DNA of 64,000 nucleotides from Methanomicrobia archaeon. Its GTDB lineage: Archaea > Halobacteriota > Bog-38 > Methanoflorentales > Methanoflorentaceae. Positions 349-54,503 of the stretch are shown piece after piece (positions within the stretch are counted from its first letter, which is position 1; each line of letters opens with the position of its first letter). The stretch spans positions 4,910 through 68,909 of the forward strand of contig JACWML010000004.1 in the NCBI GenBank assembly GCA_015661395.1. Direction: 5' to 3'. The notes beneath the pieces are model-generated. The model searched no databases. It was not told the DNA's origin and worked only from the letters and a program-made list of their open reading frames with translations. Made by a program: the position numbers and the translations under genes.

Positions 349-1641
349 TTATGGCAGCAGAGCGCGTAGAGCAGTTACAGCTGATATAGCAGACGTTATC
401 AGAACAAGTCCGGGCTGCAGTGAAGTCCTGAAAGGACTAATTACATTGGCGTCGTATTTTTGCGTGAAAACAACATTTCTTGTCATATTCTTGGTAGCCG
501 GTTTCGCTTCTAGTTCACTCAATATCAGATTGATCGTGTGCGTTCCCGTGTTAGTAAAATGGCAGCTCCAGATTGCTTTCCCACTCGAAAAGTCGTAACT
601 GAAGTACTGTTGTTTCGCTTCATCGTCAAACTCCACGCCTGTAGCTTGAATCTCTGCTTGAAGTAACTCTTTTCGATGTTCAACGCGACTAGACTCATTA
701 AAAAAAAGGTAAAGCAAAAGACTGTGTGAATCACCGACGCGAACTTTTTTCGGCAAGACTGCGAAGATATAATCTACTGGAGATGTAGCAGATTCACGTT
801 CAAATATTGGTGTGAAACGAAATATCACTGTTAGCCGATAGCCTATATACCAAAATATTAGGTATGCGACGATAAAGGACAGGAGTCCAACAGAATTCAC
901 GACGTTAAATAAACCGCTGTACCAGAGAAGACAGAGCAGAACCGTAAAGATTATCAAAAAAAGTAGTAATGTCCCAACCGTCAATCGCCTTAAAATTCTT
1001 TCCAGCCTCATCTCATCGGCTGCCTTACCCAATTTCTTGCTAGTGCGAGCTGATAGCTCGTCTCTTGATTCCGGCGATGGTTCAAAATTTGCCACACCTG
1101 TTACAACAGTGTTAAAAAAGTCTTTTTCAAAATCATGTTGCTCTGTCAAAAGCTCTATTTTTTGCGCCTTTCCACCGATTAAAGGAAGTGCGGTCTGTTT
1201 GCGTTCGAGCGATTCGGATTCCCTTTTAAATTTGTTAAGCACATAGCTCTCAAAATCAAATTCAGAGATCTGTGGGAGGTCTAAAAAAAATGGCAGACCA
1301 CGCGCGTGAAAACTTAAAGCACAAACTTGGGTTTTGGTCAGCAAGTTTCCGAAATAAATGGCTAGTAGCGCAAAAATCACACTGAATACAATGACGAGAG
1401 AGCTTGCAATGTCCTTCAGAGCAATGCCAATCGCTGGTTTGAAAAAAACCATTATGGCTAACAGCACGGGTAACAAAACGGCTAAGATCGAGGCTTGCCA
1501 AAAAAGATGGCTAAGTCGCATTCTTAAGCGGTAATGTTCAGTCCTAATTGCTTCAAGTTCTTTAGCTATTTCTAATTCAGACTGATTACGGAAATTGTCG
1601 ACGTTGTCCTCATTAGGTCTTTGTGTCGGGTCTTTGGGCAT
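349..1641 (-). CDS. hypothetical multi-pass membrane protein (430 aa)
   Basis: Long ORF with a charged N-terminus. Two clusters of hydrophobic helices (ILAVLLPVLLAIMVFF, LVIVFSVIFALLAIYF; LLLFLIIFTVLLCLLWY, FIVAYLIFWYIGY) are separated by a charged soluble segment. A soluble C-terminal region of about 130 aa follows. No family recognised. Confidence 0.6.
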   Translation of the reverse strand: MPKDPTQRPNEDNVDNFRNQSELEIAKELEAIRTEHYRLRMRLSHLFWQASILAVLLPVLLAIMVFFKPAIGIALKDIASSLVIVFSVIFALLAIYFGNLLTKTQVCALSFHARGLPFFLDLPQISEFDFESYVLNKFKRESESLERKQTALPLIGGKAQKIELLTEQHDFEKDFFNTVVTGVANFEPSPESRDELSARTSKKLGKAADEMRLERILRRLTVGTLLLFLIIFTVLLCLLWYSGLFNVVNSVGLLSFIVAYLIFWYIGYRLTVIFRFTPIFERESATSPVDYIFAVLPKKVRVGDSHSLLLYLFFNESSRVEHRKELLQAEIQATGVEFDDEAKQQYFSYDFSSGKAIWSCHFTNTGTHTINLILSELEAKPATKNMTRNVVFTQKYDANVISPFRTSLQPGLVLITSAISAVTALRALLP

Positions 1642-1728
1642 TCGTTCCTTCCAAACGTTTTGAGTATGCGCCTTTCACTTAAATGCTTTCACCCTTTCTG
1701 TTCAATCTATATTGATTGAGAATACTAA

Positions 1729-1881
1729 TCGATTTTCCACATTCTCTACGTTGGGATTGGCGTTGCGGTCGCCTACGGGTACCGCATTCACGTGGAAGAG
1801 AAGCTTTTAACTGCAGAACTCGGCGAAGCATATGTGTCGTACGCGCGCAAGACGAAACGGCTTATTCCCTACGTGATCTGA
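1729..1881 (+). pseudogene. 3' remnant of an isoprenylcysteine carboxyl methyltransferase (ICMT/PEMT) family gene
   Basis: My own translation, SIFHILYVGIGVAVAYGYRIHVEEKLLTAELGEAYVSYARKTKRLIPYVI*, matches the typical C-terminus of this family (RIxxEExxLxxxxGxxYxxYxxxxxRLIP). The frame is closed upstream by TAA at 1726-1728. There is no start codon and only about 50 codons. Confidence 0.55.
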
Positions 1882-2083
1882 CGGAGTCTGAGCAATGAAC
1901 TACTTGTGAAAGCTATATCCTGCCAGTATCGTATTTATACGTAATATGCGTGCTCAGGCAGCGGATGCCAATAATTGCTCTATTCGACGCCCAGCCGGCT
2001 GACAGCCGTGGAGATCAAATCTAAACCCATATATAGCGTTACTTCTTAACGTTTAACGACTTAAGCAAAAGGGAGGTGACGCA

Positions 2084-2377
2084 ATGGGCGAAATAAAAAC
2101 GATCACAAAGGTTCCGGTTGGGGCCGTCGCCTTGATGGGTGCCGCAATTGAAGCCGTTTTAGGGCTTATCTTTGGAATCATTGCAGCTATAGGCATTGGA
2201 GTTGGCGTCTCGACGTTCTCTAGTTCAGTTGCTGGGGGAGCGGTCGGTGCAGTTGTCGCTATTGTCGGCGGCGTTGTCGGCGGCTTCATTGGCGGCTACA
2301 TTATAACAGCAATCATAGCACTGATCTACAATTGGTTAGCACCTAGAATTGGCGGCATTAAGCTTGAACTTGAGTGA
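2084..2377 (+). CDS. small glycine/alanine-rich membrane protein (97 aa)
   Basis: ORF preceded by a strong Shine-Dalgarno-like sequence, aagggaggtgacgcaATG. It has glycine-zipper-like hydrophobic stretches (GIGVGV, GGAVGAVVAIVGGVVGGFIGG). Confidence 0.65.
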   Translation: MGEIKTITKVPVGAVALMGAAIEAVLGLIFGIIAAIGIGVGVSTFSSSVAGGAVGAVVAIVGGVVGGFIGGYIITAIIALIYNWLAPRIGGIKLELE

Positions 2378-2420
2378 CGGCAAAGCATACGGAATCGCGT
2401 AAATCGTAGAGTTCTGACGT

Positions 2421-2457
2421 TAAACGCATAGCGTTTATCGTTACTTTTTTGTTTTTT
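2421..2457 (+). terminator. hairpin plus oligo-T terminator candidate
   Basis: Stem taaacgc-ata-gcgttta (2421-2437) is followed by ttactttttt gtttttt, downstream of the 2084-2377 ORF. Confidence 0.45.
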
Positions 2458-2901
2458 AAGACAACTGCCAGTAGCCGTGCCGGTTCGTTCTTTATAAAAC
2501 AAAAGCCACAGTGCTAAAGAACGTCTCGCGTTTCATTTTGACGAAAGGAGTGATTGGCGAAGCCAGTTCCCGAATTTCTCAAAATCCCTTAGTTAGGCCG
2601 TGAAAATGTCACTCGCTTAGTATCGCCTGCTCCTTCTTCACGAGAGACTCTAGACACCGCGCAGACCACCTTGCTTGCCGAAAAACGTGTCTGCTTAGAG
2701 TTTAAGCGTATGCCAGCAACGGGTTGAATCCTTACTCTAACAGGTCTCACTGTGAGGGTTCGATCCCTCCCTATATTGCATATAAACGTCAAAAACGTGC
2801 TCAGGCGGCTGGGCTTGAAGTCATGAAAAGAGCATGCAGCCCAGTGCAAAAAGCAGTTGCTCCTGCTGAGGTGTAGGTTGTTGTTGCTTATGATCGAAGC
2901 G

Positions 2902-3699
2902 TTAAGGAGTGGCTCCATTTATGGATACCCCTTTTTTCGCCCTTAAATAATTCTTTTGAATCACGCTTGTATTGCCTCTTAGCAACACGGGGTAGAGGCT
3001 GAAGTGCTTCGCACATCTGTCAACGTTTGCGTCAAAGTCTGGCTCATAGGAAAGACCTGTATCCACTTTGGCGATCTTCTTAAATCGTGCATGCTTCATT
3101 AACGTGAAGTCCTCGCTTAGATCTTGCCACTGAGCAGCAACCATGGGCGTCAAAAACAGCATGATGTTGTTGTTGGTGAGCCCGTTTGCATATGCCTGAT
3201 TCCCACCGAGCGCAAGGGCGATGCAGTCATCAACCGTTGCCCCATTGTCGTCAGCGAGGAAGAAAAGTTGACATGTACTGCCGTTGAAATCGTGCTCAAG
3301 AGTCCTAAGGGCGTCACAAATCCCATAGAGCACAAAGATCCCGTCTGAAAAGTCTGACATGCGCTCGATCTGGTGATATACCTCTTGCTTAAGGAGCTTG
3401 CTATCGATATGAAGCCTCAACGGAAGAGCGTAGACAACGACAGCAAGATCGTCTACGCTTCGACGGCGAAGCAGCTGCTGAAGAACGCCATGTCTTTTTG
3501 TCAAATGTCCGCCGGAATGCGCCCCCTGTCGATGCTTCTTAACGAGATTAAAGGCCCCTTCAAAATCCTTAATAAGAAAAGGGCGGTTCTGTGATCGTAG
3601 TTTTCGTGCTAGCTCCTGCTGTTCTGTGCTGTCAACGATAACAAGCTGCTTGACGTCGTCGTCATCGGCAAGAATAGAGGTAAGCTCATCTTCGAGCAT
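2902..3699 (-). CDS. hypothetical protein, possibly DUF1638-like
   Basis: 265-aa ORF. The segments DGIFVLYGICDAL and VDDCIALALGGNQAY resemble the YGxCG / DCIxxxLGSxxxY pattern I recall for DUF1638. This assignment is weak. Confidence 0.5.
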   Translation of the reverse strand: MLEDELTSILADDDDVKQLVIVDSTEQQELARKLRSQNRPFLIKDFEGAFNLVKKHRQGAHSGGHLTKRHGVLQQLLRRRSVDDLAVVVYALPLRLHIDSKLLKQEVYHQIERMSDFSDGIFVLYGICDALRTLEHDFNGSTCQLFFLADDNGATVDDCIALALGGNQAYANGLTNNNIMLFLTPMVAAQWQDLSEDFTLMKHARFKKIAKVDTGLSYEPDFDANVDRCAKHFSLYPVLLRGNTSVIQKNYLRAKKGVSINGATP

Positions 3700-3830
3700 T
3701 CTACATGAAATGATACTTAAGATGGGAATGTGGCGTCACCTTATGAACACTACTTTTTTTCCAATACTTCATATAAGCATCATACACGTTTTCAGGCAAG
3801 GGATGCTTGTAATGCTTCCAGTCGATTCCA

Positions 3831-4250
3831 CTATGGAAGAAGCTTCTCCCTGCTGATGAGTTTACTTGAAAAGACAAACAGCGCGATCGCCAGAGCGGCG
3901 ATGACGACGGCTTCAGCGAGATCTACCACGACTACTGCGATAAAAGGCAGAGTCCACGGGGTTAAGTACGCGGGCACCACCAGCAACCCCCCCAAGGCGA
4001 GGCCTAACGGCTGATTTGCCCCCGCTCTCGGCTTTTGCAATGAGCTGAACGTCATCATAGCCATCGTATCGAAAGACACGAGGGAGAGGGACAAAGCGGC
4101 GGCAATGGCCGATGCCTCGAGAGGGACGGTGAGGTCTCCTCTCAGAATTAGTCCTACCGCAACATTTGCAACGGCCACCGCTCTCACAAGGAGTGAGACG
4201 AGAATGACCCCCGCTTTAAGGTAGCGCTTGAAGATGTCTCCTTGATTCAT
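3831..4250 (-). CDS. hypothetical membrane protein (139 aa)
   Basis: ORF with 3-4 hydrophobic helices. No family recognised. It sits at the left edge of the GC-richer segment. Confidence 0.5.
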   Translation of the reverse strand: MNQGDIFKRYLKAGVILVSLLVRAVAVANVAVGLILRGDLTVPLEASAIAAALSLSLVSFDTMAMMTFSSLQKPRAGANQPLGLALGGLLVVPAYLTPWTLPFIAVVVVDLAEAVVIAALAIALFVFSSKLISREKLLP

Positions 4251-5524: not shown

Positions 5525-6206
5525 TCAAGACGCAGAACCTGCGCTCCACAGACCGAGGTGCTCTTGCTGCGCCTGTAATTGAGCGTCGTAAAACAGCCCC
5601 TCACAAGATACGTCGGGTTTATACGGCGTTGCCCTCGCGTACCCCTCTCGCACGAGTTCGTAGTTCACGAGCACGTTTTCCACAAACACGAAGCGCAGCA
5701 ATCGCCCGTAGCGGTCGGTTTCAGAGACGTCTTTGACAAGGGTCACTGGCTTGCCCGCGACGAGCTCCGTCCCGTGTGGTGGCTTCAGGGCCAAGCCACT
5801 CTTTCTTTGTTGTATCCTCAGGGGCGTTCATACCGATGTACCGCACCTTGTAATCCGTGCCGTTAATGAGCACGTGAATCGTGTCCCCATCAATGACCTT
5901 CGTGACCACCCCGACTGAAGTGCTCGCCGGCGTTTCGTGGATACACGGGAAGCTCGTTGCAGCGGTGAGCGGGACAGACGGCATCGGCGTGGCCGTGCTT
6001 CGAGGAGCTGTCGTCGGCGTGGGTGAAGGGTGCACGCTCGTGGCGCCCCCGTGTGCGCCACTCGCAACGGACGCTGTCGGAACCTCCGATGGTGCGTTTG
6101 TTGCCTGAATCGTGGTGTTACCCACTCGCTGATCGGTGCATCCGCAGACAGAAATAATGAGTGCTACTGCAATTATCGCGTAAAAAGCGGGCCTGATGCC
6201 CTTCAT
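5525..6206 (-). pseudogene. thermonuclease (staphylococcal nuclease/SNase-like) lipoprotein gene interrupted by a frameshift
   Basis: Two overlapping minus-strand ORFs in different frames. The 5' ORF has a signal peptide plus a Cys lipobox-like site (IISVCGCTD) and VVTKVIDGDTIHVLINGTDYKVRYIGMNAPE. The 3' ORF has ELVAGKPVTLVKDVSETDRYGRLLRFVFVENVLVNYELVREGYA...HLGLWS. Together they make one SNase domain. The frame switch is near 5765-5795. Confidence 0.7.
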
Positions 6207-6587
6207 GAATTTAAAGAGAGCGGGGGATGGCTTATAACGTTTTTCCTTTAGCTGCGACCCTTTTTGCTGGAGCCGGGTATCTAACAGAATCCGGAGCGCC
6301 TAATTTCGACGGTGCTTTTCTTGCGGCGAGTTATATCACTCCTGACGACTAGTATGCCAGATTATGCAGTGGCACGCGGCCAAGCAAGAGTTTTCAAGCA
6401 GCTGACCGCCTTAGTTGTGCGTGTCCCAAGTGCCTGTCGTACATAACCTCCCCCCTCACTTCAACCGCCGGCTGGTGATTGAAATCACCGCAACTTTTCT
6501 GAAGAGAACAAGCCGACCGTGTGGGCCTTTCGTGGCTTCGAGTTTGAAGCCGCTATTCCAGCGGGCAGCAGTTTTTTACAAAAAGCG

Positions 6588-6615
6588 GAGCCCAATTTGG
6601 CGAGCCCAATTTGGC
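6588..6615. repeat. perfect tandem direct repeat, 2 x 14 bp (gagcccaatttggc)
   Basis: Read directly: gagcccaatttggc at 6588-6601 and again at 6602-6615, in the non-coding region upstream of the terminase genes. Confidence 0.9.
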
Positions 6616-6831
6616 GTTATCGCGCAGTCTGGTTTATATAGGACGGTTAGATAGCGTTCTGTATTGATTCATAATAGGAGTAGCATGACACAAAATCTGA
6701 ATACGAGGTCGGTTACGATCGACAAACTTGTTGTTCCCTCGCGCTGGCCCACAGAGATCCAAGGGCTCGGTCTCGACGGAACGCGTTTCGAAAGAACAGG
6801 GGTGGACAGATTAAGGAGAGGCGGTTGGTAA

Positions 6832-7140
6832 ATGTCCCCCTACGCAGACCCCCAACAACGTCGCGAATACGACAAAGAACGCAAGCAGAAGCAGCGTTCC
6901 CAGGGGCGGACAAAAAAAAGGGAGGATACACGTCCAACCGAACTTGAAATCAAGAACGCTGAAGATCTGCGCGGCCTATTCAACGAGGTTGTCACCGACG
7001 CGCGAAACGCCGATGGCACTTCACTCCCGCTTGAGGCCAAGTTGCGAATCAAGTTACGCGCCGTGGAAATCGGCCTCCGGGTCATTGAGATCACGAATCA
7101 CGAGCAACGCATAGCCGCGCTCGAGGAGCAATCAAAATGA
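6832..7140 (+). CDS. small basic coiled-coil protein, candidate terminase small subunit / DNA-binding partner of TerL
   Basis: 102-aa ORF with a basic N-terminus (PYADPQQRREYDKERKQKQRSQGRTKKRED). Its stop overlaps the terminase large subunit start in ATGA (7137-7140). The function is inferred from position only. Confidence 0.4.
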   Translation: MSPYADPQQRREYDKERKQKQRSQGRTKKREDTRPTELEIKNAEDLRGLFNEVVTDARNADGTSLPLEAKLRIKLRAVEIGLRVIEITNHEQRIAALEEQSK

Positions 7141-8957
7141 GCCAACACGAATCGAGAATCAAGAACCTCGAAGCTGACCGTACGAGCAACGCCACGAGTG
7201 AGACGGAGATTCCGCGTGATTCCGTGGCGTTCGCCAGGTTGTTGCATATAGAGCCCGATCCCTGGCAGTGTGACCTCCTCACCTCGAACGAGCCGCGCGT
7301 TATCCTCAACTGCGGACGTCAGACGGGCAAATCGACGATCGTCGCTATCCTCGCGCTTCACCACGCGCTCACTAATCGCAACGCGGTAGTGCTCATCCTC
7401 GCGAAGTCGCAGCGGCAGTCAGAGGAGCTCTTGCGAAAGGTCGTTACCTTCTTTCACCAGCTTGGAGAGCCTGGTGGCAGCCGAGGCGAATCCGCCACTG
7501 CGCTCGAACTCAACAACGGCAGCCGGGTCTTAGCCCTGCCCGGCTCAGAAGAGACGACTCGGGGATACAGCGCGTCGCTGCTCCTTATTGACGAGGCCGC
7601 GCAGGTTTCCGATGCGCTATATCATTCGTCCACGCCCATGCTTGCGGCTTCAAACGGGCGGCTGATCCTTCTGAGCACGCCGCGCGGCAAGCAGGGCGTA
7701 TTCTACCGCACGTGGAACGAGGGCCAAGGGTGGAAGAAGATTACCGTGCCTGCTGAAGGGTGCCCCCGCATCACAAAGGAGTTTCTCGACGACGAACGGC
7801 GCACCATGGGCGAGTCGTGGTTCCGCCAGGAGTACTGCTGTGAGTTTACGCAGGAGCAGGGGGCGATCTTCAATGAAGCCTGGGTGCAGCTCTACGTTCC
7901 GGGGCAGCTTCCACCGATGGACGTGGTCATCCAGTCGTGGGACACCGCCCTTAAAGCGTCGGCGACGTCAGATTATGTCGTAGTGCAGGTGTGGGGCCGC
8001 TCAGGCGACGATTATTACCTCCTCGACCAGGTGCGCCGTAAAATGGACTTTGACCAAACAGTGGAGGCGATCAGACGTATGTCAGAGCTGTGGCCCCAAA
8101 CAACGGCGATCCTCGTGGAATCTCAGACGCTCGGGGACGCGATCGCGTCGCACGTTCAAGACGAGATCGAAGGCATCACCTCCGTTCCTGTGCGGGGGAA
8201 CAAGGAGCGCCGCGCCTGGAACTGTGTTCCATTATGGAGGCTGAATCGCGTGTGGCTTCCTACTCCGGATGGCGATCAGTACAAATGGATACACGAGTAT
8301 TTGCAAGAGCTCCTGAACTTCCCTGACGCGGCGTACGACGACCAGGTGGACGCCACGACCTTGGCCCTCAACCACCTGCGGGGGAAACTGTTTCCGAGCG
8401 CACAGCAACACGTCGCTCGCGTGCGCACCCAACCCATCGCGGGCCGTTACTACAATCTCGCATGGGTTCCCGCGCACCTCGACCAACACGGGGCTGTCTT
8501 GGCGCTCGATATGAAAACCTATGACGTCGTATTCCTTGAGACGCTTCTTCCGAGTGCCGTTCGGCACCAGCTCGCCACGGTTGCAGCGATTTCGCGCTCC
8601 TATAACGACGCGGTCGTGTTCGCGGTTCGCGGCTACGACGAGGGGATGTTGCGCGCCCTCGACGATGGGGGAACGTGGGTTGAACGAGTTACGTTCACCG
8701 CGGATATGTGGCAAGCGGCCTATGAGAACCTGGACTTGCTCCTCCGCAACGGGAAGGTCCGCTATCCCGCGTATTCGCAACTTATGGCCGAACTCGACGC
8801 GTTTGCATTCTCGAACTCCAGGAGCGGCAAGCCCGAATATCCGCGGCACCCGACCGTACAGGCGCTCTGTTTACTGACGTACGACTTGAGCCCACGCCCT
8901 GATTTTCTAGACAATGTTTACTCCAATCATGATCTTGATGATCTTGGCTTGTTTTAG
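7137..8957 (+). CDS. terL: phage/virus-type terminase large subunit (ATPase plus RNase H-like nuclease) with a C-terminal extension of about 190 aa
   Basis: Walker A is NCGRQTGKST and Walker B is SLLLIDEAAQV. The nuclease domain reads VIQSWDTALKASATSDYVVVQVWG...YYLLD...ILVESQTLG...FPDAAYDDQVDATTLALNHL, typical of Terminase_6-type TerL. Confidence 0.8.
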   Translation: MSQHESRIKNLEADRTSNATSETEIPRDSVAFARLLHIEPDPWQCDLLTSNEPRVILNCGRQTGKSTIVAILALHHALTNRNAVVLILAKSQRQSEELLRKVVTFFHQLGEPGGSRGESATALELNNGSRVLALPGSEETTRGYSASLLLIDEAAQVSDALYHSSTPMLAASNGRLILLSTPRGKQGVFYRTWNEGQGWKKITVPAEGCPRITKEFLDDERRTMGESWFRQEYCCEFTQEQGAIFNEAWVQLYVPGQLPPMDVVIQSWDTALKASATSDYVVVQVWGRSGDDYYLLDQVRRKMDFDQTVEAIRRMSELWPQTTAILVESQTLGDAIASHVQDEIEGITSVPVRGNKERRAWNCVPLWRLNRVWLPTPDGDQYKWIHEYLQELLNFPDAAYDDQVDATTLALNHLRGKLFPSAQQHVARVRTQPIAGRYYNLAWVPAHLDQHGAVLALDMKTYDVVFLETLLPSAVRHQLATVAAISRSYNDAVVFAVRGYDEGMLRALDDGGTWVERVTFTADMWQAAYENLDLLLRNGKVRYPAYSQLMAELDAFAFSNSRSGKPEYPRHPTVQALCLLTYDLSPRPDFLDNVYSNHDLDDLGLF

Positions 8958-9273: not shown

Positions 9274-9320
9274 TGGGCTCGGCCGGATTCGAACCGGCGA
9301 CCTCTGCCGTGCGAAGACGG
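9274..9320 (-). other. isolated tRNA 3' half (anticodon-loop region to discriminator) with no 5' half; att-site remnant candidate
   Basis: The minus strand reads ttcgcac-GGCAG-aggtc-GCCGG-TTCGAAT-CCGGC-CGAGCCC-A. The T-arm is perfect and the 3' acceptor strand is present. The matching 5' acceptor GGGCTCG and D-arm are absent from the adjacent 100 nt. Confidence 0.6.
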
Positions 9321-15972: not shown

Positions 15973-16896
15973 GTGCTTAGGGGGTCTCTTTTCGTGAATG
16001 AGGTACTGAAGCGCATTTCGCCGTTTAGCATGATGCTCTTCATCATCGCAATCCAGTTGATCGCGCTTCTATTGGCTAACCCGTTTCAAGCATCGGACAT
16101 CAAAGCGTTCAATAATCCACAATCCGTGTTCAATCCGCTCTATTATTTTCTGCTTATTTTGGTTTTCACAGCATTTTTGCTGCTCATCATCAGGCTCGGC
16201 AAACGGTGGGTGATACAAGTTATCATCGGCCTCGTAATCATCTCAACACTTTACTTCGTTTATTCGTCAGTCCTACTCAGTCTTAACAGTGGGTGGCTCA
16301 TCGCGATAGCGGCAACAGCCGTGACCGCTTTTTTCCTGTTCTATTATCCAGAATGGTACGTGATCGATCTCGTTGGGATCTTAATAGGTGCTGGCGCGGC
16401 TGCAATATTTGGAATCTCTTTCGCCGTCCTACCTGCGCTGGTACTCCTAATAGCACTCGCCATCTACGACTTTATCTCAGTATACGAGACTAAACATATG
16501 GTTAGCCTCGCCGAGGGTGTCGTCGATTTAAACCTGCCGGTCTTGTTTGTTCTCCCCCGTAATAGAGGGTATTCTCACGTGAAATGGTCACGGGAAGCTT
16601 CTGAAGCGAGCGGCGAAGAAAAACTAGAGAAGCGCGAAGCGTTTTTTATGGGGCTGGGCGATGCAGTAATCCCGACCGTTTTGGTAATATCTGCAAATAC
16701 GTTCTTGAATGCCCCAATGTTTGGGCTCATTAACGTTCCTGCCTTAGGCGCGGCTATTGGCACACTCGCGGGTTATGTGGGGCTGATGTTGCTAGTTCTT
16801 AAAGGAAAACCGCAAGCGGGCTTGCCGTTCTTGAACTCAGGCGCAATCGTCGGATTGCTTATAGCAAGCTATCTCGTAGGAGTCAAGCCATTCTAG
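15973..16896 (+). CDS. presenilin/signal-peptide-peptidase-like intramembrane aspartyl protease (A22 family)
   Basis: Multi-pass membrane protein with YD (AIYDFISVY), GxGD (GLGDAVIP) and PAL (VPALGA) motifs. The start is uncertain: GTG at 15973, GTG at 15994 or ATG at 16030. Confidence 0.75.
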   Translation: MLRGSLFVNEVLKRISPFSMMLFIIAIQLIALLLANPFQASDIKAFNNPQSVFNPLYYFLLILVFTAFLLLIIRLGKRWVIQVIIGLVIISTLYFVYSSVLLSLNSGWLIAIAATAVTAFFLFYYPEWYVIDLVGILIGAGAAAIFGISFAVLPALVLLIALAIYDFISVYETKHMVSLAEGVVDLNLPVLFVLPRNRGYSHVKWSREASEASGEEKLEKREAFFMGLGDAVIPTVLVISANTFLNAPMFGLINVPALGAAIGTLAGYVGLMLLVLKGKPQAGLPFLNSGAIVGLLIASYLVGVKPF

Positions 16897-16899
16897 CCG

Positions 16900-17868
16900 T
16901 CACGATGTTTCGTCGACCTGCCTTGTCCGGGGAGCGTGGTGTGCGCGAGCTAGATCAATTGAAGCTTTAAGCACCGCTGCAATTCCTTCACCAGATAGTG
17001 TTGAGATCCCGAAAGCTTCGTTAACTGGTTCTGCCGGCCCGAGGTCCATTTTATTTGCTGCGACTATGACGGGAAGGCCGACCTGAGATTTCAGCTCGCG
17101 CAGAAGGTTTAGTTGATCGGACACTTCGTATCCAGAGGTGCCCGAAGGATCAACAATGAACAACACAGCGTCTCCGAGGTTTTTGAGAGCTGAAATCGCC
17201 TGAAGTTCTATGGTGTTTCTCTTCGACACGGGGCGGTCGAGCAGTCCGGGCAAATCGACAATCTGATAACGTCGATCGCAGTACTGTATGTGTCCGACGA
17301 TGATGCCCTTCGTGGTGAATGGGTAAAGTGCGATCTCGGGTTTGGCGCTAGTTACAAAAGCGACGAAACTCGACTTGCCAACATTCGGATATCCCGCAAC
17401 TAATATGGTTGGCTCATCGTCTAGCGCGGGAAGCGCGTTAATCGTGTTTCTGGCGCGATTCAAAAAATCGAGATCTGGCTGGATCTCCTTCATGATGGAA
17501 GCGGTTCGTCCAAACATCTGCTTCCTAACCGCTTTTGCGTCAGATACGCGAGCCATTTTCCCGATTGCGGCCCTAGACAGCTGATGGATTTTTGTCGATG
17601 CCCATGTGACTGAAGCAAGTGATATTCTAAGCTGATCTAGTCCAACGACGATGTCGATTGTCTCCGAGTAGAACGCGCCGATCTCATCGAAGTTCGGAAA
17701 TCGCCTCACGACAGCTCTAAGATTGTCCGCCAGGATGTTTGACGCTGTCAAGATCATCGTCTTCTCTGCCGTCCGCCCTGGCGATTTTCCTGCTCTTGCC
17801 CGGACACTCTTTCTGAATGCTTTGCCCAATAACTCTTCTGCAGTCGGGACAGTCGGAATATTGAACAT
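16900..17868 (-). CDS. NOG1-family GTP-binding protein
   Basis: G1 is GYPNVGKSSF, G3 is DLPGLLDRP and G4 is ANKMD. The N-terminal NOG1-like region and the 322-aa length fit this family. Confidence 0.8.
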   Translation of the reverse strand: MFNIPTVPTAEELLGKAFRKSVRARAGKSPGRTAEKTMILTASNILADNLRAVVRRFPNFDEIGAFYSETIDIVVGLDQLRISLASVTWASTKIHQLSRAAIGKMARVSDAKAVRKQMFGRTASIMKEIQPDLDFLNRARNTINALPALDDEPTILVAGYPNVGKSSFVAFVTSAKPEIALYPFTTKGIIVGHIQYCDRRYQIVDLPGLLDRPVSKRNTIELQAISALKNLGDAVLFIVDPSGTSGYEVSDQLNLLRELKSQVGLPVIVAANKMDLGPAEPVNEAFGISTLSGEGIAAVLKASIDLARAHHAPRTRQVDETS

Positions 17869-17935
17869 TTCGTACTCCTAGACATCGCGAGCTAATAAAA
17901 CTTATATCTCATAATTAATCATACTAATTACAGTA

Positions 17936-18820
17936 ATGGAACTCACGTCCGTGCAAAAGGAGATCTTAAGCACTCTTATCAGCTTATATCGTCGCAAACC
18001 GCGCTCAATCAGAGGAGAAGAGATAGCCGAGATTCTTGGCCGAAATCCAGGCACAATAAGAAATCAAATGCAATCGCTAAAAGCCCTTCAGCTTGTGGAG
18101 GGTGTTCCAGGGCCCAAAGGCGGATACAAAGCCACTAGCGCCGCATACCGGGAACTGGAACTGGACACGATGGCGGAAGAAGCGCACGTTGTTTTGATTA
18201 AAAATAGCGCTGAAGTACGCGATGTTCTCATCGAGGAAATCGACTTTACGACAGTTGCACATCCAGACGTGTGCAGTGCAGCGATCAAGATAATTGGAAA
18301 CATTCGGGAGTTCGACATTGGCGACACTCTTAAGCTCGGTCCGACTCCCGTGAATAATCTAACCATAAAAGGCACGGTTTGCGGCAGAAACGACGCGGAG
18401 AACAAACTCATCGTTTTGGTCTCTGAGATGATATCTCTTCCGAAAGCGCCGGTGAGTGAGTATGCCTCGAACGATTTAGTCACGATCGATATCGACGCGC
18501 CGCTTCAAGAAGTTGCCAGGACCCTTATCGAGCACAATATTCAAGGAGCTCCGGTAAAACAGGGCAAAAAACTCGTGGGCGTAGTCACGCTAGAGGATTT
18601 AGGAAGAGCCGTTGCAGTTGGAAACCGCGGCTCCGCAGGAGATATTATGAGTCGAGACTTGCTGTCAGTTGAAGACGATAGGCCCGTTTACGAGGCCATC
18701 CGTCTCCTCCAGGAACATCACGTCGGCCGACTGCTGGTAACGAACAACGGTTCTCCAACGGGAGTCATCACGCGAACCGACGTGCTGCGCGAGATTCTCA
18801 ATTCTGTGATGCTTGCGTGA
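17936..18820 (+). CDS. winged-helix plus CBS-pair domain protein (putative regulator)
   Basis: N-terminal wHTH-like segment (EEIAEILGRNPGTIRNQMQSLKALQLVEGVPGPKGGY) and C-terminal tandem CBS motifs (GAPV...LVGVVTLEDL; GRLLV...GVITRTDVL). Confidence 0.7.
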   Translation: MELTSVQKEILSTLISLYRRKPRSIRGEEIAEILGRNPGTIRNQMQSLKALQLVEGVPGPKGGYKATSAAYRELELDTMAEEAHVVLIKNSAEVRDVLIEEIDFTTVAHPDVCSAAIKIIGNIREFDIGDTLKLGPTPVNNLTIKGTVCGRNDAENKLIVLVSEMISLPKAPVSEYASNDLVTIDIDAPLQEVARTLIEHNIQGAPVKQGKKLVGVVTLEDLGRAVAVGNRGSAGDIMSRDLLSVEDDRPVYEAIRLLQEHHVGRLLVTNNGSPTGVITRTDVLREILNSVMLA

Positions 18821-19734: not shown

Positions 19735-20763
19735 ATGCCAACAGGCGCGATCGTGTACGATCCTGCATACAGAGACCACGACACAGGGGATCATATCGAA
19801 TCCAAAAGCCGAATAGATGCAATTATGGGACGTATACGAGAAGATGAACAGGCAAGACGTGTTCAGATACTTAAGCCGTTTAAAGCGGCCCCCGACCAAG
19901 TCGGAACCAATCATGACGTCAAATATATCGCGCGCGTGCGCCGACTTGCTGAAGCAGGGGGCGGCTGGCTCGATTTGGATACGTATTGTTCCTCGAGAAG
20001 CTATGAAGTGTCGCTCCTCGCCGTCGGAGGGGTCATTTGTGCTGTTGATGCCGTTATGGCGGACGTGCACAACGTGATGGCGGTTGTCAGGCCTCCTGGC
20101 CATCACGCAGTTTGGAACAAAGCAATGGGATTTTGCATCTTTAACAATGTTGCCTGCGCGGCGAAGTACGCCATCGCAAGTAAAGATATCGAACGGGTCC
20201 TAATCATCGACTGGGATGTGCATCACGGCAACGGAACGCAAGCATCCTTCTACGGTGATTCGCGTGTGTTGTATATGTCGACGCACCAACGACCTTTTTT
20301 TCCAGGAACTGGCGATTTTGAGGAGGCAGGATCGGGAGAAGGCGAGGGTTTCACGGTGAATCTGCCGCTTCCTCCAAGCGTCAATAATGACGGCTTCTTC
20401 TACGCATATGACCGCCTCTTCATTCCAATTGCACAACAGTTCGAACCTCAACTCACCTTCGTGTCGGCTGGACAGGATATACACTACGCGGACCCAATCG
20501 GCGGCATGCTTGCCACCTCGAATGCATTTAGAGGATTGACTGAACGGGTGAAATCTGTGACCCCGCAGGGGCAGGTCATCGCCTGCCTGGAAGGAGGATA
20601 TGATCTCCACGCCCTAGCTGATTCTACGCTCGCAATATGTGGGTCGTTATTTGATTTCCCGACGCAAGTGGAAGAAGACGACGTCAACGGCGGAATATCG
20701 AAGCACGTCAGCGATCGGGTTGAGAGGGCGATCAAGGTACAATCAAAATATTGGGAACTGTGA
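19735..20763 (+). CDS. histone deacetylase family protein (AcuC/HDAC class)
   Basis: RPPGHHA, FCIFNNVA, DWDVHHGNGTQ and the EGGY signature. Confidence 0.88.
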   Translation: MPTGAIVYDPAYRDHDTGDHIESKSRIDAIMGRIREDEQARRVQILKPFKAAPDQVGTNHDVKYIARVRRLAEAGGGWLDLDTYCSSRSYEVSLLAVGGVICAVDAVMADVHNVMAVVRPPGHHAVWNKAMGFCIFNNVACAAKYAIASKDIERVLIIDWDVHHGNGTQASFYGDSRVLYMSTHQRPFFPGTGDFEEAGSGEGEGFTVNLPLPPSVNNDGFFYAYDRLFIPIAQQFEPQLTFVSAGQDIHYADPIGGMLATSNAFRGLTERVKSVTPQGQVIACLEGGYDLHALADSTLAICGSLFDFPTQVEEDDVNGGISKHVSDRVERAIKVQSKYWEL

Positions 20764-20765
20764 TT

Positions 20766-22148
20766 CTAGTCGCAATTGTTGAGCGTCCTGTCAAAGTAAC
20801 GGGCTAGAAAAAGCCGCATCCCGTCGCTATCTAGAAGCTCTTCGTCTTTGAGGATCTGAAACTCCTGTTCCATCGCTCGCAAGATTGCCTTGCTCGAGCG
20901 CACGTTCTTGAACTCGGCTGCTACGTATTCGGGCAGCGTGAGATACTTGCGTCGAAGCTCAACGACGTAGCGGCCACCGTCTATGTATGGTCCTGACAAC
21001 ACGAGAGGGTTGTTGGCGTATTTCTTTTTGAACTTGTTGGCGTGTCGCTTGGAGTCGACAGGCGGGCCCTCGTGTCTTTCCACGGCAGGGAGTTGCGAAA
21101 CTAGCATTTCAAAGAGCAAGACGGCCTCCCCTCTCTCGTAATAAATGTCGCCTCGCAGGGCCGAAAAGCCGTGTCGCACCAGCGCGATCAGCATTCCCTT
21201 GTGAGCTCGCTCGAGCTGCGGGTAAGCGATATCGTCAACGAGATCTGGCAAGTCAAACTTCACGCCAAATACGGTTGTTTTTCGTTTCTTGACAATGGCT
21301 TGGAAGGCGCTAGCGTCGAGGGGCGGAATCTGCTGGGGAAAAAAACACTCTATGCACGGGCTTTCTAGGAAGCTCCTTGCAGAATCAATGAAAACAGAAA
21401 AACTATCTAGCGAGACTGCAGCAGCTACGTTTCGATTTGTGTCTACTGGGTCGATAACCGCCAAAGGGCTGGCGAAACTGTTGCGAGCGTCTTCACTAGT
21501 CAAGCTGATGCAGGTCCCTACTTTCCAATCCTGGACGCTTTTTAGTACATTTACAAAGGAGCCAAATTTGATAACGAGGAGCTCACAGAGGTATCCAGAG
21601 AATCCTTTGGTTCGTAACTCTGCGCCGTATATGCCCGCTCCCTTTAAGAACTGTTTTAACAGCCTGACGTCATCTTGTCTCCCGTCGAGGTGCTCGGCTA
21701 TGAATTGCTGATGAAATGGGGTCCTATCGACTGCTGAGAGTATTTGGCGCGTATTCTTGATTCGGTAGTGCGGCACGACATCAATAGCGAAACCGCCGCA
21801 ACGAGCTTTTACATAAGGATGCTCGGCAAAACCTATGATATAGCCTTCGACCGCAATTTCTTTTCCTATTTCCAATCCGTAGCGTTCAAGGTCTTCGCGC
21901 GAAGTGCTCGCGTCAAATCCGATGAATATGTCGATATCTTGATCGCCCTCTTCGTCGCCCGAAATCCAGGTGTCTCGTGCAGCAGAACCAATTACTTCCA
22001 CGGTCGCACTCAGATTTCTGCTTGCGAGCGCGCTTTCTGCAGCGGTAATCACCTGTTGGGTAACTCGGTGCAGACGCTCACGTTCGCTTCGTGAAGGTCG
22101 TATTCGTTTTAGCACGTTCATTTGCACTCGGGTTAACTCGTTTTTCAT
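20766..22148 (-). CDS. cca: CCA-adding enzyme (archaeal class I tRNA nucleotidyltransferase)
   Basis: 460 aa with the nucleotidyltransferase motif IGSAARDTWISGD...DIDIFIGF. The length and architecture are typical. Confidence 0.9.
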   Translation of the reverse strand: MKNELTRVQMNVLKRIRPSRSERERLHRVTQQVITAAESALASRNLSATVEVIGSAARDTWISGDEEGDQDIDIFIGFDASTSREDLERYGLEIGKEIAVEGYIIGFAEHPYVKARCGGFAIDVVPHYRIKNTRQILSAVDRTPFHQQFIAEHLDGRQDDVRLLKQFLKGAGIYGAELRTKGFSGYLCELLVIKFGSFVNVLKSVQDWKVGTCISLTSEDARNSFASPLAVIDPVDTNRNVAAAVSLDSFSVFIDSARSFLESPCIECFFPQQIPPLDASAFQAIVKKRKTTVFGVKFDLPDLVDDIAYPQLERAHKGMLIALVRHGFSALRGDIYYERGEAVLLFEMLVSQLPAVERHEGPPVDSKRHANKFKKKYANNPLVLSGPYIDGGRYVVELRRKYLTLPEYVAAEFKNVRSSKAILRAMEQEFQILKDEELLDSDGMRLFLARYFDRTLNNCD

Positions 22149-54418: not shown

Positions 54419-54503
54419 GGGCTCGTAACTCAGGGGTAGAGTGCCACGTTCGCATCTCAGGAGAAAGACGTGGATGCCACGGGTTCGATTCCCGTCGAGT
54501 CCA
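54419..54503 (+). tRNA. tRNA-Ala (anticodon CGC) with a 13-nt intron after position 37
   Basis: Hand-folded: GGGCTCG...CGAGTCC-A with the G3:U70 alanine identity pair. The anticodon arm is CCACG-TTCGCA[TCTCAGGAGAAAG]A-CGTGG and the T-arm is ACGGG-TTCGATT-CCCGT. Confidence 0.88.

Follow-up and report, generated by a model that had tools for sequence, protein, structure and literature searches.

Terminase genes are regarded as a hallmark exclusive to the genomes of head-tailed viruses. The one earlier archaeal exception is NitKor-E1, an integrated element of Candidatus Nitrosopumilus koreensis AR1 in which the small and large terminase subunits (TerS and TerL) are the only Caudovirales genes; its authors noted that terminase had not been identified previously in non-viral mobile elements, considered its function enigmatic and took the pair for a probable relic (PMC6563490). 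Here we describe a terminase cassette in a 64-kb stretch of the chromosome of a Methanomicrobia archaeon (contig JACWML010000004.1). This whole stretch is referred to as the window, and coordinates are window positions unless one of the related loci, designated by L-numbers, is named. In the window, a TerL gene and a small gene directly upstream of it stand apart from all virion genes. Such terminase-only cassettes are recurrent, conserved, multi-copy and mobile in uncultured peat-bog Halobacteriota/Methanomicrobia, and are best interpreted as compact, integrase-less, horizontally moving integrated elements; what remains of one decayed provirus, or a host gene passed on by vertical descent, is a poorer description of them.

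NitKor-E1 is the closest precedent with respect to gene content: in both elements, a gene in the TerS position directly upstream of TerL completes the sole Caudoviricetes hallmarks, and portal and capsid genes are missing. NitKor-E1 has its own tyrosine integrase and nuclease aboard, encodes a recognizable TerS and is a single case from another phylum, whereas the cassette is found in about 75 loci, in multiple copies, under purifying selection, without an internal integrase, with a partner unrelated to known TerS and with an added, apparently dead domain in TerL. The other relevant systems are the bacterial satellites, namely, phage-inducible chromosomal islands (PICIs), capsid-forming PICIs (cf-PICIs), PICI-like tycheposons and virion-encapsidated integrative mobile elements (VEIMEs), which are small, integrated, often at tRNA genes or in tandem arrays, and redirect the capsids of their helpers. 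The cassette shares with these satellites packaging genes, the lack of a full set of virion genes and, in some copies, tRNA-derived ends resembling attachment (att) sites. Classical PICIs, tycheposons and VEIMEs combine TerS only with an integrase and replication genes, and cf-PICIs encode TerS and TerL along with capsid, portal and connector genes; the cassette, in contrast, consists of TerL and a protein in the TerS position alone. For archaea, previous proposals of satellites are limited to those of spindle viruses, which derive from plasmids, and to a single Asgard candidate.

The larger gene of the cassette encodes a 606-aa protein that, with regard to both sequence and predicted structure, is a TerL homolog by every test run; its use in a virus of its own is unsupported. 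Pfam detects Terminase_6N (aa 57-251, E = 2e-13) and Terminase_6C (aa 267-413, E = 4e-16), PHROG TerL families match with E = 3e-61 and 5e-57, and NCBIfam TIGR01630, the psiM2_ORF9 terminase domain, matches with E = 1e-16. The AlphaFold2 model (mean predicted local distance difference test score (pLDDT) 82) retrieves the T4 gp17, D6E, Sf6, HK97 and P74-26 terminases as the best PDB matches, and the predicted fold of the ATPase domain matches those of T4 gp17 and P74-26. The ATPase domain contains the Walker A motif GRQTGKST (aa 60-67), the Walker B motif LLLIDEAA (148-155) and the coupling motif LLSTPRG; the nuclease domain contains QSWDTA (266-271), DYVVVQVWG (279-287), LVESQ (326-330) and YDDQVDA (400-406). 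A preliminary description of the locus, made from the sequence alone, had considered the Walker motifs and the nuclease signature intact, and the alignment of 34 family members bears this out, with G64, K65, D152, T181, D269, E328, D401, D402 and D405 invariant. The protein thus bears the sequence hallmarks of DNA translocation and cleavage, and both activities are predicted. The same combination of ATPase motifs with an RNase H-like nuclease containing an acidic triad is characteristic of canonical TerLs (T4 gp17, Riverbug, P74-26/G20c and the psiM2 ORF9 type); unlike these, the cassette TerL has an extra C-terminal domain of about 160 aa that lacks all catalytic residues. The best match from a cultured virus is the TerL of Thermus phage Riverbug, with 41.5% identity over aa 38-336, half of the protein, covering the ATPase domain and the first nuclease domain. 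The Riverbug gene lies within a normal TerL-TerS-portal-protease-capsid module, whereas the cassette TerL is not located beside portal or capsid genes.

The preliminary description reported no virion genes within several kilobases of the terminase pair, and the entire 64-kb window contains none; nor did any turn up on longer contigs or beside the TerL genes of about 75 related loci that contain the same terminase unit and come from peat and fen Halobacteriota/Methanomicrobia genomes (the loci compared include 29 genome-derived ones, 51 from metagenomes and several look-ups). An intact TerL gene with a coupled partner and without virion genes could not arise by chance. In the metagenome collection, 55 blocks contain a TerL identical to that of the window, and its surroundings are the same in each. 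Full-length homologs of about 600 aa come from metagenome-assembled genomes labeled Halobacteriota, Methanomicrobia, Methanobacteriota or Euryarchaeota and from one labeled Bathyarchaeia; the sources include isolates bog_38 and fen_29 and the SPRUCE bins. Clustering of 1,073 flanking open reading frames (ORFs) from 75 TerL loci showed that only TerL and the small gene are widely shared. The next most common clusters are endonuclease III (EndoIII; 15 loci) and an integrase (8 loci), and the other recurrent neighbors are host enzymes, namely, a thiamine pyrophosphate enzyme, an AIR-synthase-like protein, acetyl-CoA synthetase, NrdD, LarA, malic enzyme and TrmB. Among the matches listed in a PHROG scan of 112 distinct flanking ORFs are methyltransferases, primases, transposases and SbcC. 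Two PHROG matches in the flanks that are labeled terminase turned out to be HerA-like ATPases. A HerA/FtsK-like ATPase gene with such a label (phrog_2666 match) lies directly downstream of the cassette in L022 (12043-13665, minus strand). In addition, a gene for a 411-aa HD-domain protein with dNTPase- or 5'-deoxynucleotidase-like motifs (phrog_30941, E = 9e-80) is located beside cassettes in six loci (L015, L022 (6317-7552), L027, L029, L195 and L216) and may be a frequent passenger.

The distribution of the copies argues for horizontal movement. Up to three diverged copies are present per genome, as in OY970393.1 (L013, L022 and L033, the last of a sister type discussed below), CAWDSY01 (L011, L025 and L029) and JBAULJ01 (L017, L018 and L028). 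At least nine genomes carry a cassette at one and the same site, upstream of EndoIII-aCPSF1-PsmB. The host genes at this site are 95-99% identical (dS 0.1-0.4), whereas the TerLs are 43-54% identical to that of the window, with saturated dS, and are closer to copies from other sites than to one another (L016-L018, 76%; L027-L025, 75%; L014-L013, 67%). By these sequence comparisons, the copies at the EndoIII site are not orthologous; the only true orthologs of the window copy are L011, L006 and L007, in which the TerL dS of 0.22-0.23 matches that of the host genes.

The right end of the window cassette is marked by the 3' part of a tRNA-Val gene. A full tRNA at 9274-9319 was considered and rejected because neither ARAGORN nor Rfam (E up to 1) finds one; the sequence is thus only part of a tRNA and would not function as one. 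Of the genome-derived loci checked, many, including some at unrelated sites, have such a fragment 75-555 nt, mostly 75-320 nt, downstream of the TerL stop codon (L006, L007, L011, L008-L010, where 25 nt are kept, L013, L025, L027, L030 and L031). In L013, the position of the fragment is occupied by an intact tRNA-Val(CAC): in this complete 2.31-Mb chromosome (OY970393.1), the NurA-HerA-Mre11-Rad50 operon and the tRNA gene are about 3.1 kb apart, and the cassette fills the space between them. Two loci contain units bounded by repeats: in L030, direct repeats of the tRNA fragment (47 nt, 83%) bracket a 3.5-kb unit that holds the cassette alone, and in L013, a weaker direct repeat (30 nt, 77%) brackets 2.6 kb. 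No second copy of the tRNA fragment and no terminal inverted repeats were found in the window.

No integrase is encoded inside the cassette unit. However, an integrase gene (phrog_1, E = 3e-8) is located just outside the left repeat in L029 and L030 (L030 7227-8528) and, as a fragment, is present in L181; the integrase recurs in 8 loci. A replication module is likewise missing from the window cassette; only L181 has a primase-polymerase (prim-pol) gene nearby. In 10 of the 11 type-1 loci measured (the exception is L028), the GC content of the cassette is 1-10 points above that of the flanks; the window cassette itself lies in a stretch with a GC fraction of 0.52-0.59 compared with about 0.48-0.50. 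About a fifth of the copies are frameshifted or truncated (among them L023, L029, L030, L031, L032 and L034). The EndoIII-side site behaves as a hot spot at which att-flanked cassettes accumulate. In the loci most closely related to the window (L006 11873-15409; L011 12122-15658; L007 2235-8485), 3.4-6 kb of integrase-less cargo lies between TerL and EndoIII, enclosed by two direct copies of the tRNA-Val fragment; the cargo encodes either TMEM175- and VIT1-type transporters or a helix-turn-helix (HTH) regulator, a P-type ATPase, a CMD protein and a radical-SAM protein.

The window copy is under purifying selection and is fixed in its population: the cassette is present in all 24 contigs that were read through EndoIII, and no empty site was seen among them. 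All frames, the translational coupling and the catalytic residues are intact. In the comparison with L011, which the preliminary description had proposed as a check in general form, the TerL ratio of nonsynonymous to synonymous substitution rates (dN/dS) is 0.33 at a dS of 0.23, within the range of the flanking host genes (dS 0.12-0.24). By domain, dN/dS is 0.19 for the ATPase (range 0.14-0.19), 0.48 for the nuclease and 0.40 for the C-terminal domain; the 102-aa gene has a value of 0.31, and at the same dS, aCPSF1 and EndoIII have values of 0.04 and 0.23, respectively. These sequence features fit a cassette that is kept functional in at least some lineages.

The C-terminal part of TerL is unusual. 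The terminase models stop near aa 430, and all family members carry about 170 further conserved residues. In the AlphaFold model, aa 439-581 adopt a beta-beta-beta-alpha-beta-alpha-beta-alpha arrangement, that is, a second RNase H-like domain. The family profile matches the nuclease domains of the P74-26 and G20c TerLs with this C-terminal region (E = 1e-12), such that 'IGADFG' of P74-26 is aligned to 'IGWIPA' of the family, and 'VVAD' is aligned to a gap. When the profile of the C-terminal region alone was compared with 1.84 billion representative proteins, the family itself came first (24 matches below 1e-30), followed by ordinary terminases of 400-480 aa that align at their canonical nuclease domain. 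These ordinary TerLs retain vDLar, iDatG and hDDcV.ALaLA, whereas the corresponding positions of the family are occupied by GWIPAR, a gap and AQQSgIhALCL, the last of which reads RHPTVQALCL in the window protein. Because the catalytic motifs are replaced at positions aligned with those of ordinary TerLs, the cassette protein appears to be a complete terminase with an appended, catalytically dead nuclease domain that comes from another terminase lineage. A recent internal duplication of the nuclease domain was rejected, given an hhalign probability of 0.4% for domain 1 against domain 2; the two belong to different TerL lineages. Descent of the dead domain from the truncated nuclease of the second TerL in L181 was rejected as well, because the two show no similarity. 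The contig of the closest ordinary TerL (P0281) is only 2 kb long, so that its context is uninformative. In phi29 gp16, a vestigial nuclease domain replaces the active one and still binds DNA (PMC13595956), whereas in the cassette TerL the dead domain is added to an active one; by analogy, a DNA-holding or docking role of this domain is plausible. In the literature searched, no earlier account of a TerL extended by a dead nuclease domain came to light, which is weak evidence of absence.

The preliminary description also took the terminase and the 102-aa protein encoded upstream for a TerS-TerL pair. With regard to position and coupling, this stands: the two genes lie where that description placed them, on the plus strand, and the ATG of TerL overlaps the TGA of the small gene (ATGA, AAATGAGCC, 7137-7140). 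The small protein is basic (pI 9.3, with 12 lysines and arginines in the first 40 residues) and predicted to be helical. It is also conserved alongside TerL, as expected of a pair: the gene is found directly upstream of TerL in at least 24 loci with 46-84% identity, compared with about 50% for TerL, which is thus the less conserved of the two. However, TerS homology could not be detected. The 102-aa protein has no match in Pfam, PHROG, NCBIfam, PADLOC, PDB or BFVD, and the search for homology to TerS by Foldseek on BFVD (best E = 0.5), by PDB profiles and by hhalign was negative throughout, so that the TerS label follows from the position of the gene. A database search with this protein yielded 156 proteins, all of about 100 aa, with no distant relatives; the 120 listed are at least 61% identical. 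The monomer model (pLDDT 75) contains helices at 7-23, 37-59 and, the longest, 67-101, that is, a basic N-terminal helix followed by a helical hairpin with a long C-terminal helix; this predicted architecture is compatible with, not specific to, TerS. There is a resemblance between two conserved segments of the pair, the C-terminal end of the small protein (TNHEQRIAALEEQSK) and the N-terminal helix of TerL (MSQHESRIKNLEADR; 7095-7187 in the window); both are predicted to be helical, and a heteromeric coiled-coil contact is possible.

A 48-aa micro-ORF precedes the small gene as an open frame in 8 loci (the window, L011, L008, L013, L021, L026, L030 and L181) and shows the conserved motif SVTIDxL..P...EI.G.GLEG.R.ER..DR.RRG; it has no family match and is absent from the other subgroups. 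The cassettes without the micro-ORF (L014 at about 4020-4180, L015, L016 and L018) share a different conserved leader, which starts from the small gene about 150 nt away on its upstream side, includes an inverted repeat (CAGAAACAAGA ... TCTTGTTTCT) and could be a structured 5' untranslated region. About 320 nt upstream of the real 102-aa gene, just before a T-rich palindrome, some loci contain a partial duplicate of the 5' end of this gene, encoding ..NPEQRREYDETYEHRQR (L030 9392-9440, L008 9403-9422 and L026 at about 6110-6170); this duplicate may mark recombination between cassettes. L030 combines a small gene similar to that of the window (84% aa identity) with a distant TerL (45%).

In a sister type of the module (P0088, P0091, P0092 and P0096), the same nuclease and dead-nuclease half is joined to a different ATPase domain, and TerL is preceded by a genuine TerS of 149-160 aa (phrog_4102, E = 5e-12), which supports a TerS-like role for the gene in this position, that is, a putative one for the 102-aa protein. 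The sister-type modules (L091 9529-11896, L092 9532-11872 and L033 9412-11701) are likewise orphan; they adjoin genes for an EVE protein, a methyltransferase (MTase)-Mrr pair and GmrSD/HNH in L091, and type I-B CRISPR-Cas with two mini-arrays in L092. PADLOC-DB 2.0 has no match for TerL, the 102-aa protein or the sister-type proteins, and the 7 CRISPR spacers examined, all from one array, have no match.

Neither IMG/VR nor INPHARED yielded a complete virus that encodes a TerL of this family. A family-specific scan of IMG/VR gave no match for the dead C-terminal domain, and the sole match for the 102-aa protein was L181, a 7.8-kb fragment (IMGVR_UViG_3300009646_000237). Upstream of the cassette, this fragment contains a whole tRNA-Val, an N-terminal fragment of an integrase, a second TerL and a prim-pol (phrog_1829, E = 1.5e-52), all within 577-3807; the second TerL is broken up into one ORF for the ATPase and a truncated one for the nuclease, the latter with the active-type motifs VGVDLG and LDATGVG, and the cassette, consisting of the micro-ORF, the small gene and TerL, runs off the end of the contig. 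By gene content, L181 is a mobile-element mosaic rather than a virion module; it may represent the element in an ancestral state or with more of its genes preserved. A probe of IMG/VR for helper viruses with the att sequence matched L181 and also L182, a high-GC, apparently bacterial-virus contig that was discarded as a coincidental tRNA match.

Because the three-gene cassette recurs, moves and is conserved without capsid genes, a mobile element that borrows capsids is a more probable identity for it than a defunct virus. We put at slightly less than an even chance the more specific, satellite-like scenario, in which the cassette is mobilized in trans by neighboring integrases and its own motor loads cassette-linked DNA into the capsids of helper head-tailed viruses. 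Under this scenario, the integrase of a neighboring or co-resident element would move the cassette; the helper would make procapsids; the 102-aa protein would act as a TerS-like DNA-recognition or assembly factor; TerL would cut cassette-linked DNA, in the form of concatemers or adjacent chromosomal DNA, and pump it into the borrowed capsids; and the dead nuclease domain would be an adaptor that holds DNA or docks to the portal. Altogether, the element would be a satellite, or a hitchhiker, that brings a packaging motor and no capsid. It is possible, if doubtful, that no satellites of head-tailed viruses have been recognized in archaea before these, and that satellites carrying the packaging motor alone are new in any domain of life (a TerS-like protein and TerL, with a fossil nuclease re-used for portal docking or DNA holding), mobilized in trans and loading themselves, and possibly adjacent chromosomal DNA, into stolen capsids.

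Several points weigh against the satellite scenario. No helper virus, excised form or encapsidated cassette DNA was seen, and a capsid could be filled by an element of 3 kb only if concatemers or flanking DNA were packaged. The 102-aa protein shows no detectable similarity to any TerS, including those of the sister type (hhalign probability 0.1%). The search for structural genes covered the window and the flanks of the loci rather than whole genomes, and because the PHROG matches listed for the flanks represent 25 out of 92 families with matches, weak similarity to a portal or capsid protein could have been hidden. The TerL tree is a neighbor-joining sketch without support values, and the direct repeat in L013 is short enough to have occurred by chance. 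Finally, given the single att-like fragment and the lack of an empty site, the window copy may no longer move.

The rivals to the satellite scenario each account for part of these observations. The cassette could be an anti-viral, domesticated decoy that occupies viral portals or procapsids or cuts concatemers, thus aborting virion assembly, with recognition provided by the dead domain and the small protein, and with the diverse alleles at a fixed locus reflecting an arms race. We consider this unlikely. Interference with helper phages by the packaging genes of satellites has been documented, the window population shows fixation of the cassette under purifying selection, and highly diverged alleles occupy one hot spot at the edge of a variable island. 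Multiple diverged copies per genome are usual for defense genes, and the sister type adjoins either CRISPR-Cas or the other genes listed above. However, neither protein of the window pair matches a PADLOC model, we know of no described defense system built on TerL, and the att-like repeats, neighboring integrases and pseudogenized copies suggest a selfish element; defense and satellite roles are not mutually exclusive. Another view holds that the cassettes are leftovers of integrated head-tailed viruses without a present function. The tRNA fragment, the GC-shifted island and a frameshifted SNase gene nearby fit such decay, as do the frameshifted or truncated copies listed above and the relic of a second TerL in L181, and a relic was the explanation favored for NitKor-E1 (Krupovic et al. 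2019, PMC6563490). Nevertheless, we find it quite unlikely: random decay predicts varied leftovers, yet about 75 loci retain the same genes and nothing else viral, with invariant catalytic residues, preserved translational coupling, a TerL dN/dS of 0.33 at a dS equal to that of host genes, and a small gene that is well conserved among copies. Furthermore, the whole insert in L013 is only about 3.1 kb long, and the virus databases contain no complete virus with this TerL family.

Two other explanations appear still weaker. The cassettes might serve capsid and tail genes encoded elsewhere in the genome and package host DNA, in the manner of a gene transfer agent (GTA). The partner of only about 100 aa without a recognizable DNA-binding domain resembles the short TerS of the Rhodobacter GTA, fixation under purifying selection would be expected of such a host system, and chromosomal packaging from the cassette would result in gene transfer similar to lateral transduction. 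A GTA is, however, highly unlikely: known GTAs keep the terminase inside the head-tail cluster, structural genes turned up neither in the window nor beside any copy in the 75 loci whose flanks were covered, and several diverged copies per genome with non-orthologous replacement are a poor fit to a single domesticated system. It is hardly credible that TerL itself, with its RNase H fold, is a recombinase or transposase that inserts the cassette at tRNA-like sequences. The repeat-bounded units of L013 and L030 contain no integrase, and TerL occupies the att-proximal position that is usual for an integrase; yet no terminal inverted repeats or target-site duplications were found, a tyrosine-type integrase adjoins several loci, repeats of tRNA 3' ends are a hallmark of tyrosine integrases, and we know of no precedent for TerL-mediated integration. 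The preliminary description had offered three alternatives, namely, a provirus remnant, a satellite- or GTA-like arrangement dependent on structural genes encoded elsewhere, and a domesticated nuclease or ATPase; the satellite-like one fits best, and a plain provirus remnant is the least supported. The orphan status of the module that it proposed is upheld, whereas the recurrent, moving family, the micro-ORF of one subgroup, the att-like tRNA end and the dead domain had escaped it.

One practical consequence is that the presence of TerL is unsafe as a provirus marker in these genomes; a fragment with the cassette has already been filed as viral in IMG/VR. The cassettes may represent an unrecognized route of capsid piracy, gene transfer or anti-viral interference in peat and fen archaea, and the combination of an active and a dead nuclease is a natural experiment that could reveal which regions of TerL contact DNA and which contact the portal.

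The cassette consists of a promoter region, the micro-ORF, the 102-aa gene, TerL and the tRNA-Val-derived att-like end, altogether about 2.4-3.5 kb (window copy in Table 1). Homology between the window and diverged copies starts at 6526 (L013) or at 6602 (L008, L026 and L030). A motif similar to the T-rich palindrome, TTTTTTATAAAAAA, is found upstream of most copies for which the upstream region was read, and could be a regulatory, packaging or replication site. The tandem repeat next to it is represented by a single copy (CGGAGCCCAATTTGGCGTTAT) in other cassettes, and the predicted DNA fold of the upstream repeat region is no different from that of shuffled sequences (z = -1.5). The TATA-like box is presumed to be the promoter of the three-gene operon.

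Table 1. Features of the terminase cassette in the window
Feature	Position	Strand	Comment
T-rich palindrome TTTTTTACAAAAA	6572-6584	+	left edge of conserved cassette
Two tandem copies of GAGCCCAATTTGGC	6588-6615	+	candidate protein-binding site
Archaeal TATA-like box TTTATATA	6633-6640	+	conserved in the micro-ORF-bearing subgroup
48-aa basic micro-ORF (MTQNLNTRSVTIDKLVVPSRWPTEIQGLGLDGTRFERTGVDRLRRGGW)	6685-6831	+	TAA stop abuts ATG of the 102-aa gene
102-aa basic three-helix protein (predicted), TerS position	6832-7140	+	translationally coupled to TerL by ATGA overlap
606-aa large terminase TerL, whole gene	7137-8957	+	Pfam, PHROG, TIGR01630, AlphaFold model
TerL ATPase domain, aa ~40-255	7254-7901	+	Walker A, Walker B, coupling motif LLSTPRG
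TerL nuclease domain 1, aa ~256-430, RNase H-like	7902-8426	+	Terminase_6C / psiM2_ORF9 type
TerL C-terminal extra domain, aa ~431-590	8427-8906	+	predicted second RNase H-like domain, terminase-nuclease-like, without catalytic residues
tRNA-Val-like 3' part (T-arm GGTTCGAATCC and acceptor strand)	9274-9319	-	att-like right end of cassette, integration hot spot

To the right of the cassette, the window encodes EndoIII, aCPSF1, proteasome beta, PCMT and FEN1, and to the left, DUF1638, membrane proteins, CMD and the frameshifted SNase, with a Zn-ribbon protein also nearby; the remainder consists of housekeeping genes, including those for the CCA-adding enzyme, EF1A, EF2, RNA polymerase subunits, RFC and TFIIB. 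The SNase gene, of the secreted or lipoprotein type (5525-6206, minus strand), is frameshifted near 5780-5794 into ORFs 5721-6206 and 5525-5794. In L025, another cassette is preceded by a homologous SNase region (88% nucleotide identity), of which L030 retains a fragment; the elements may thus take up the SNase gene as a passenger from time to time. Elsewhere in the window (54419-54503, plus strand), ARAGORN reports an 85-nt tRNA to which it assigns no identity and a four-base anticodon (cgca), and which may contain an intron or be otherwise unusual. L011 contains two aCPSF1-like genes, for proteins of 634 and 639 aa (16460-18364 and 19858-21777, minus strand), a few kilobases apart, whereas the window has one.

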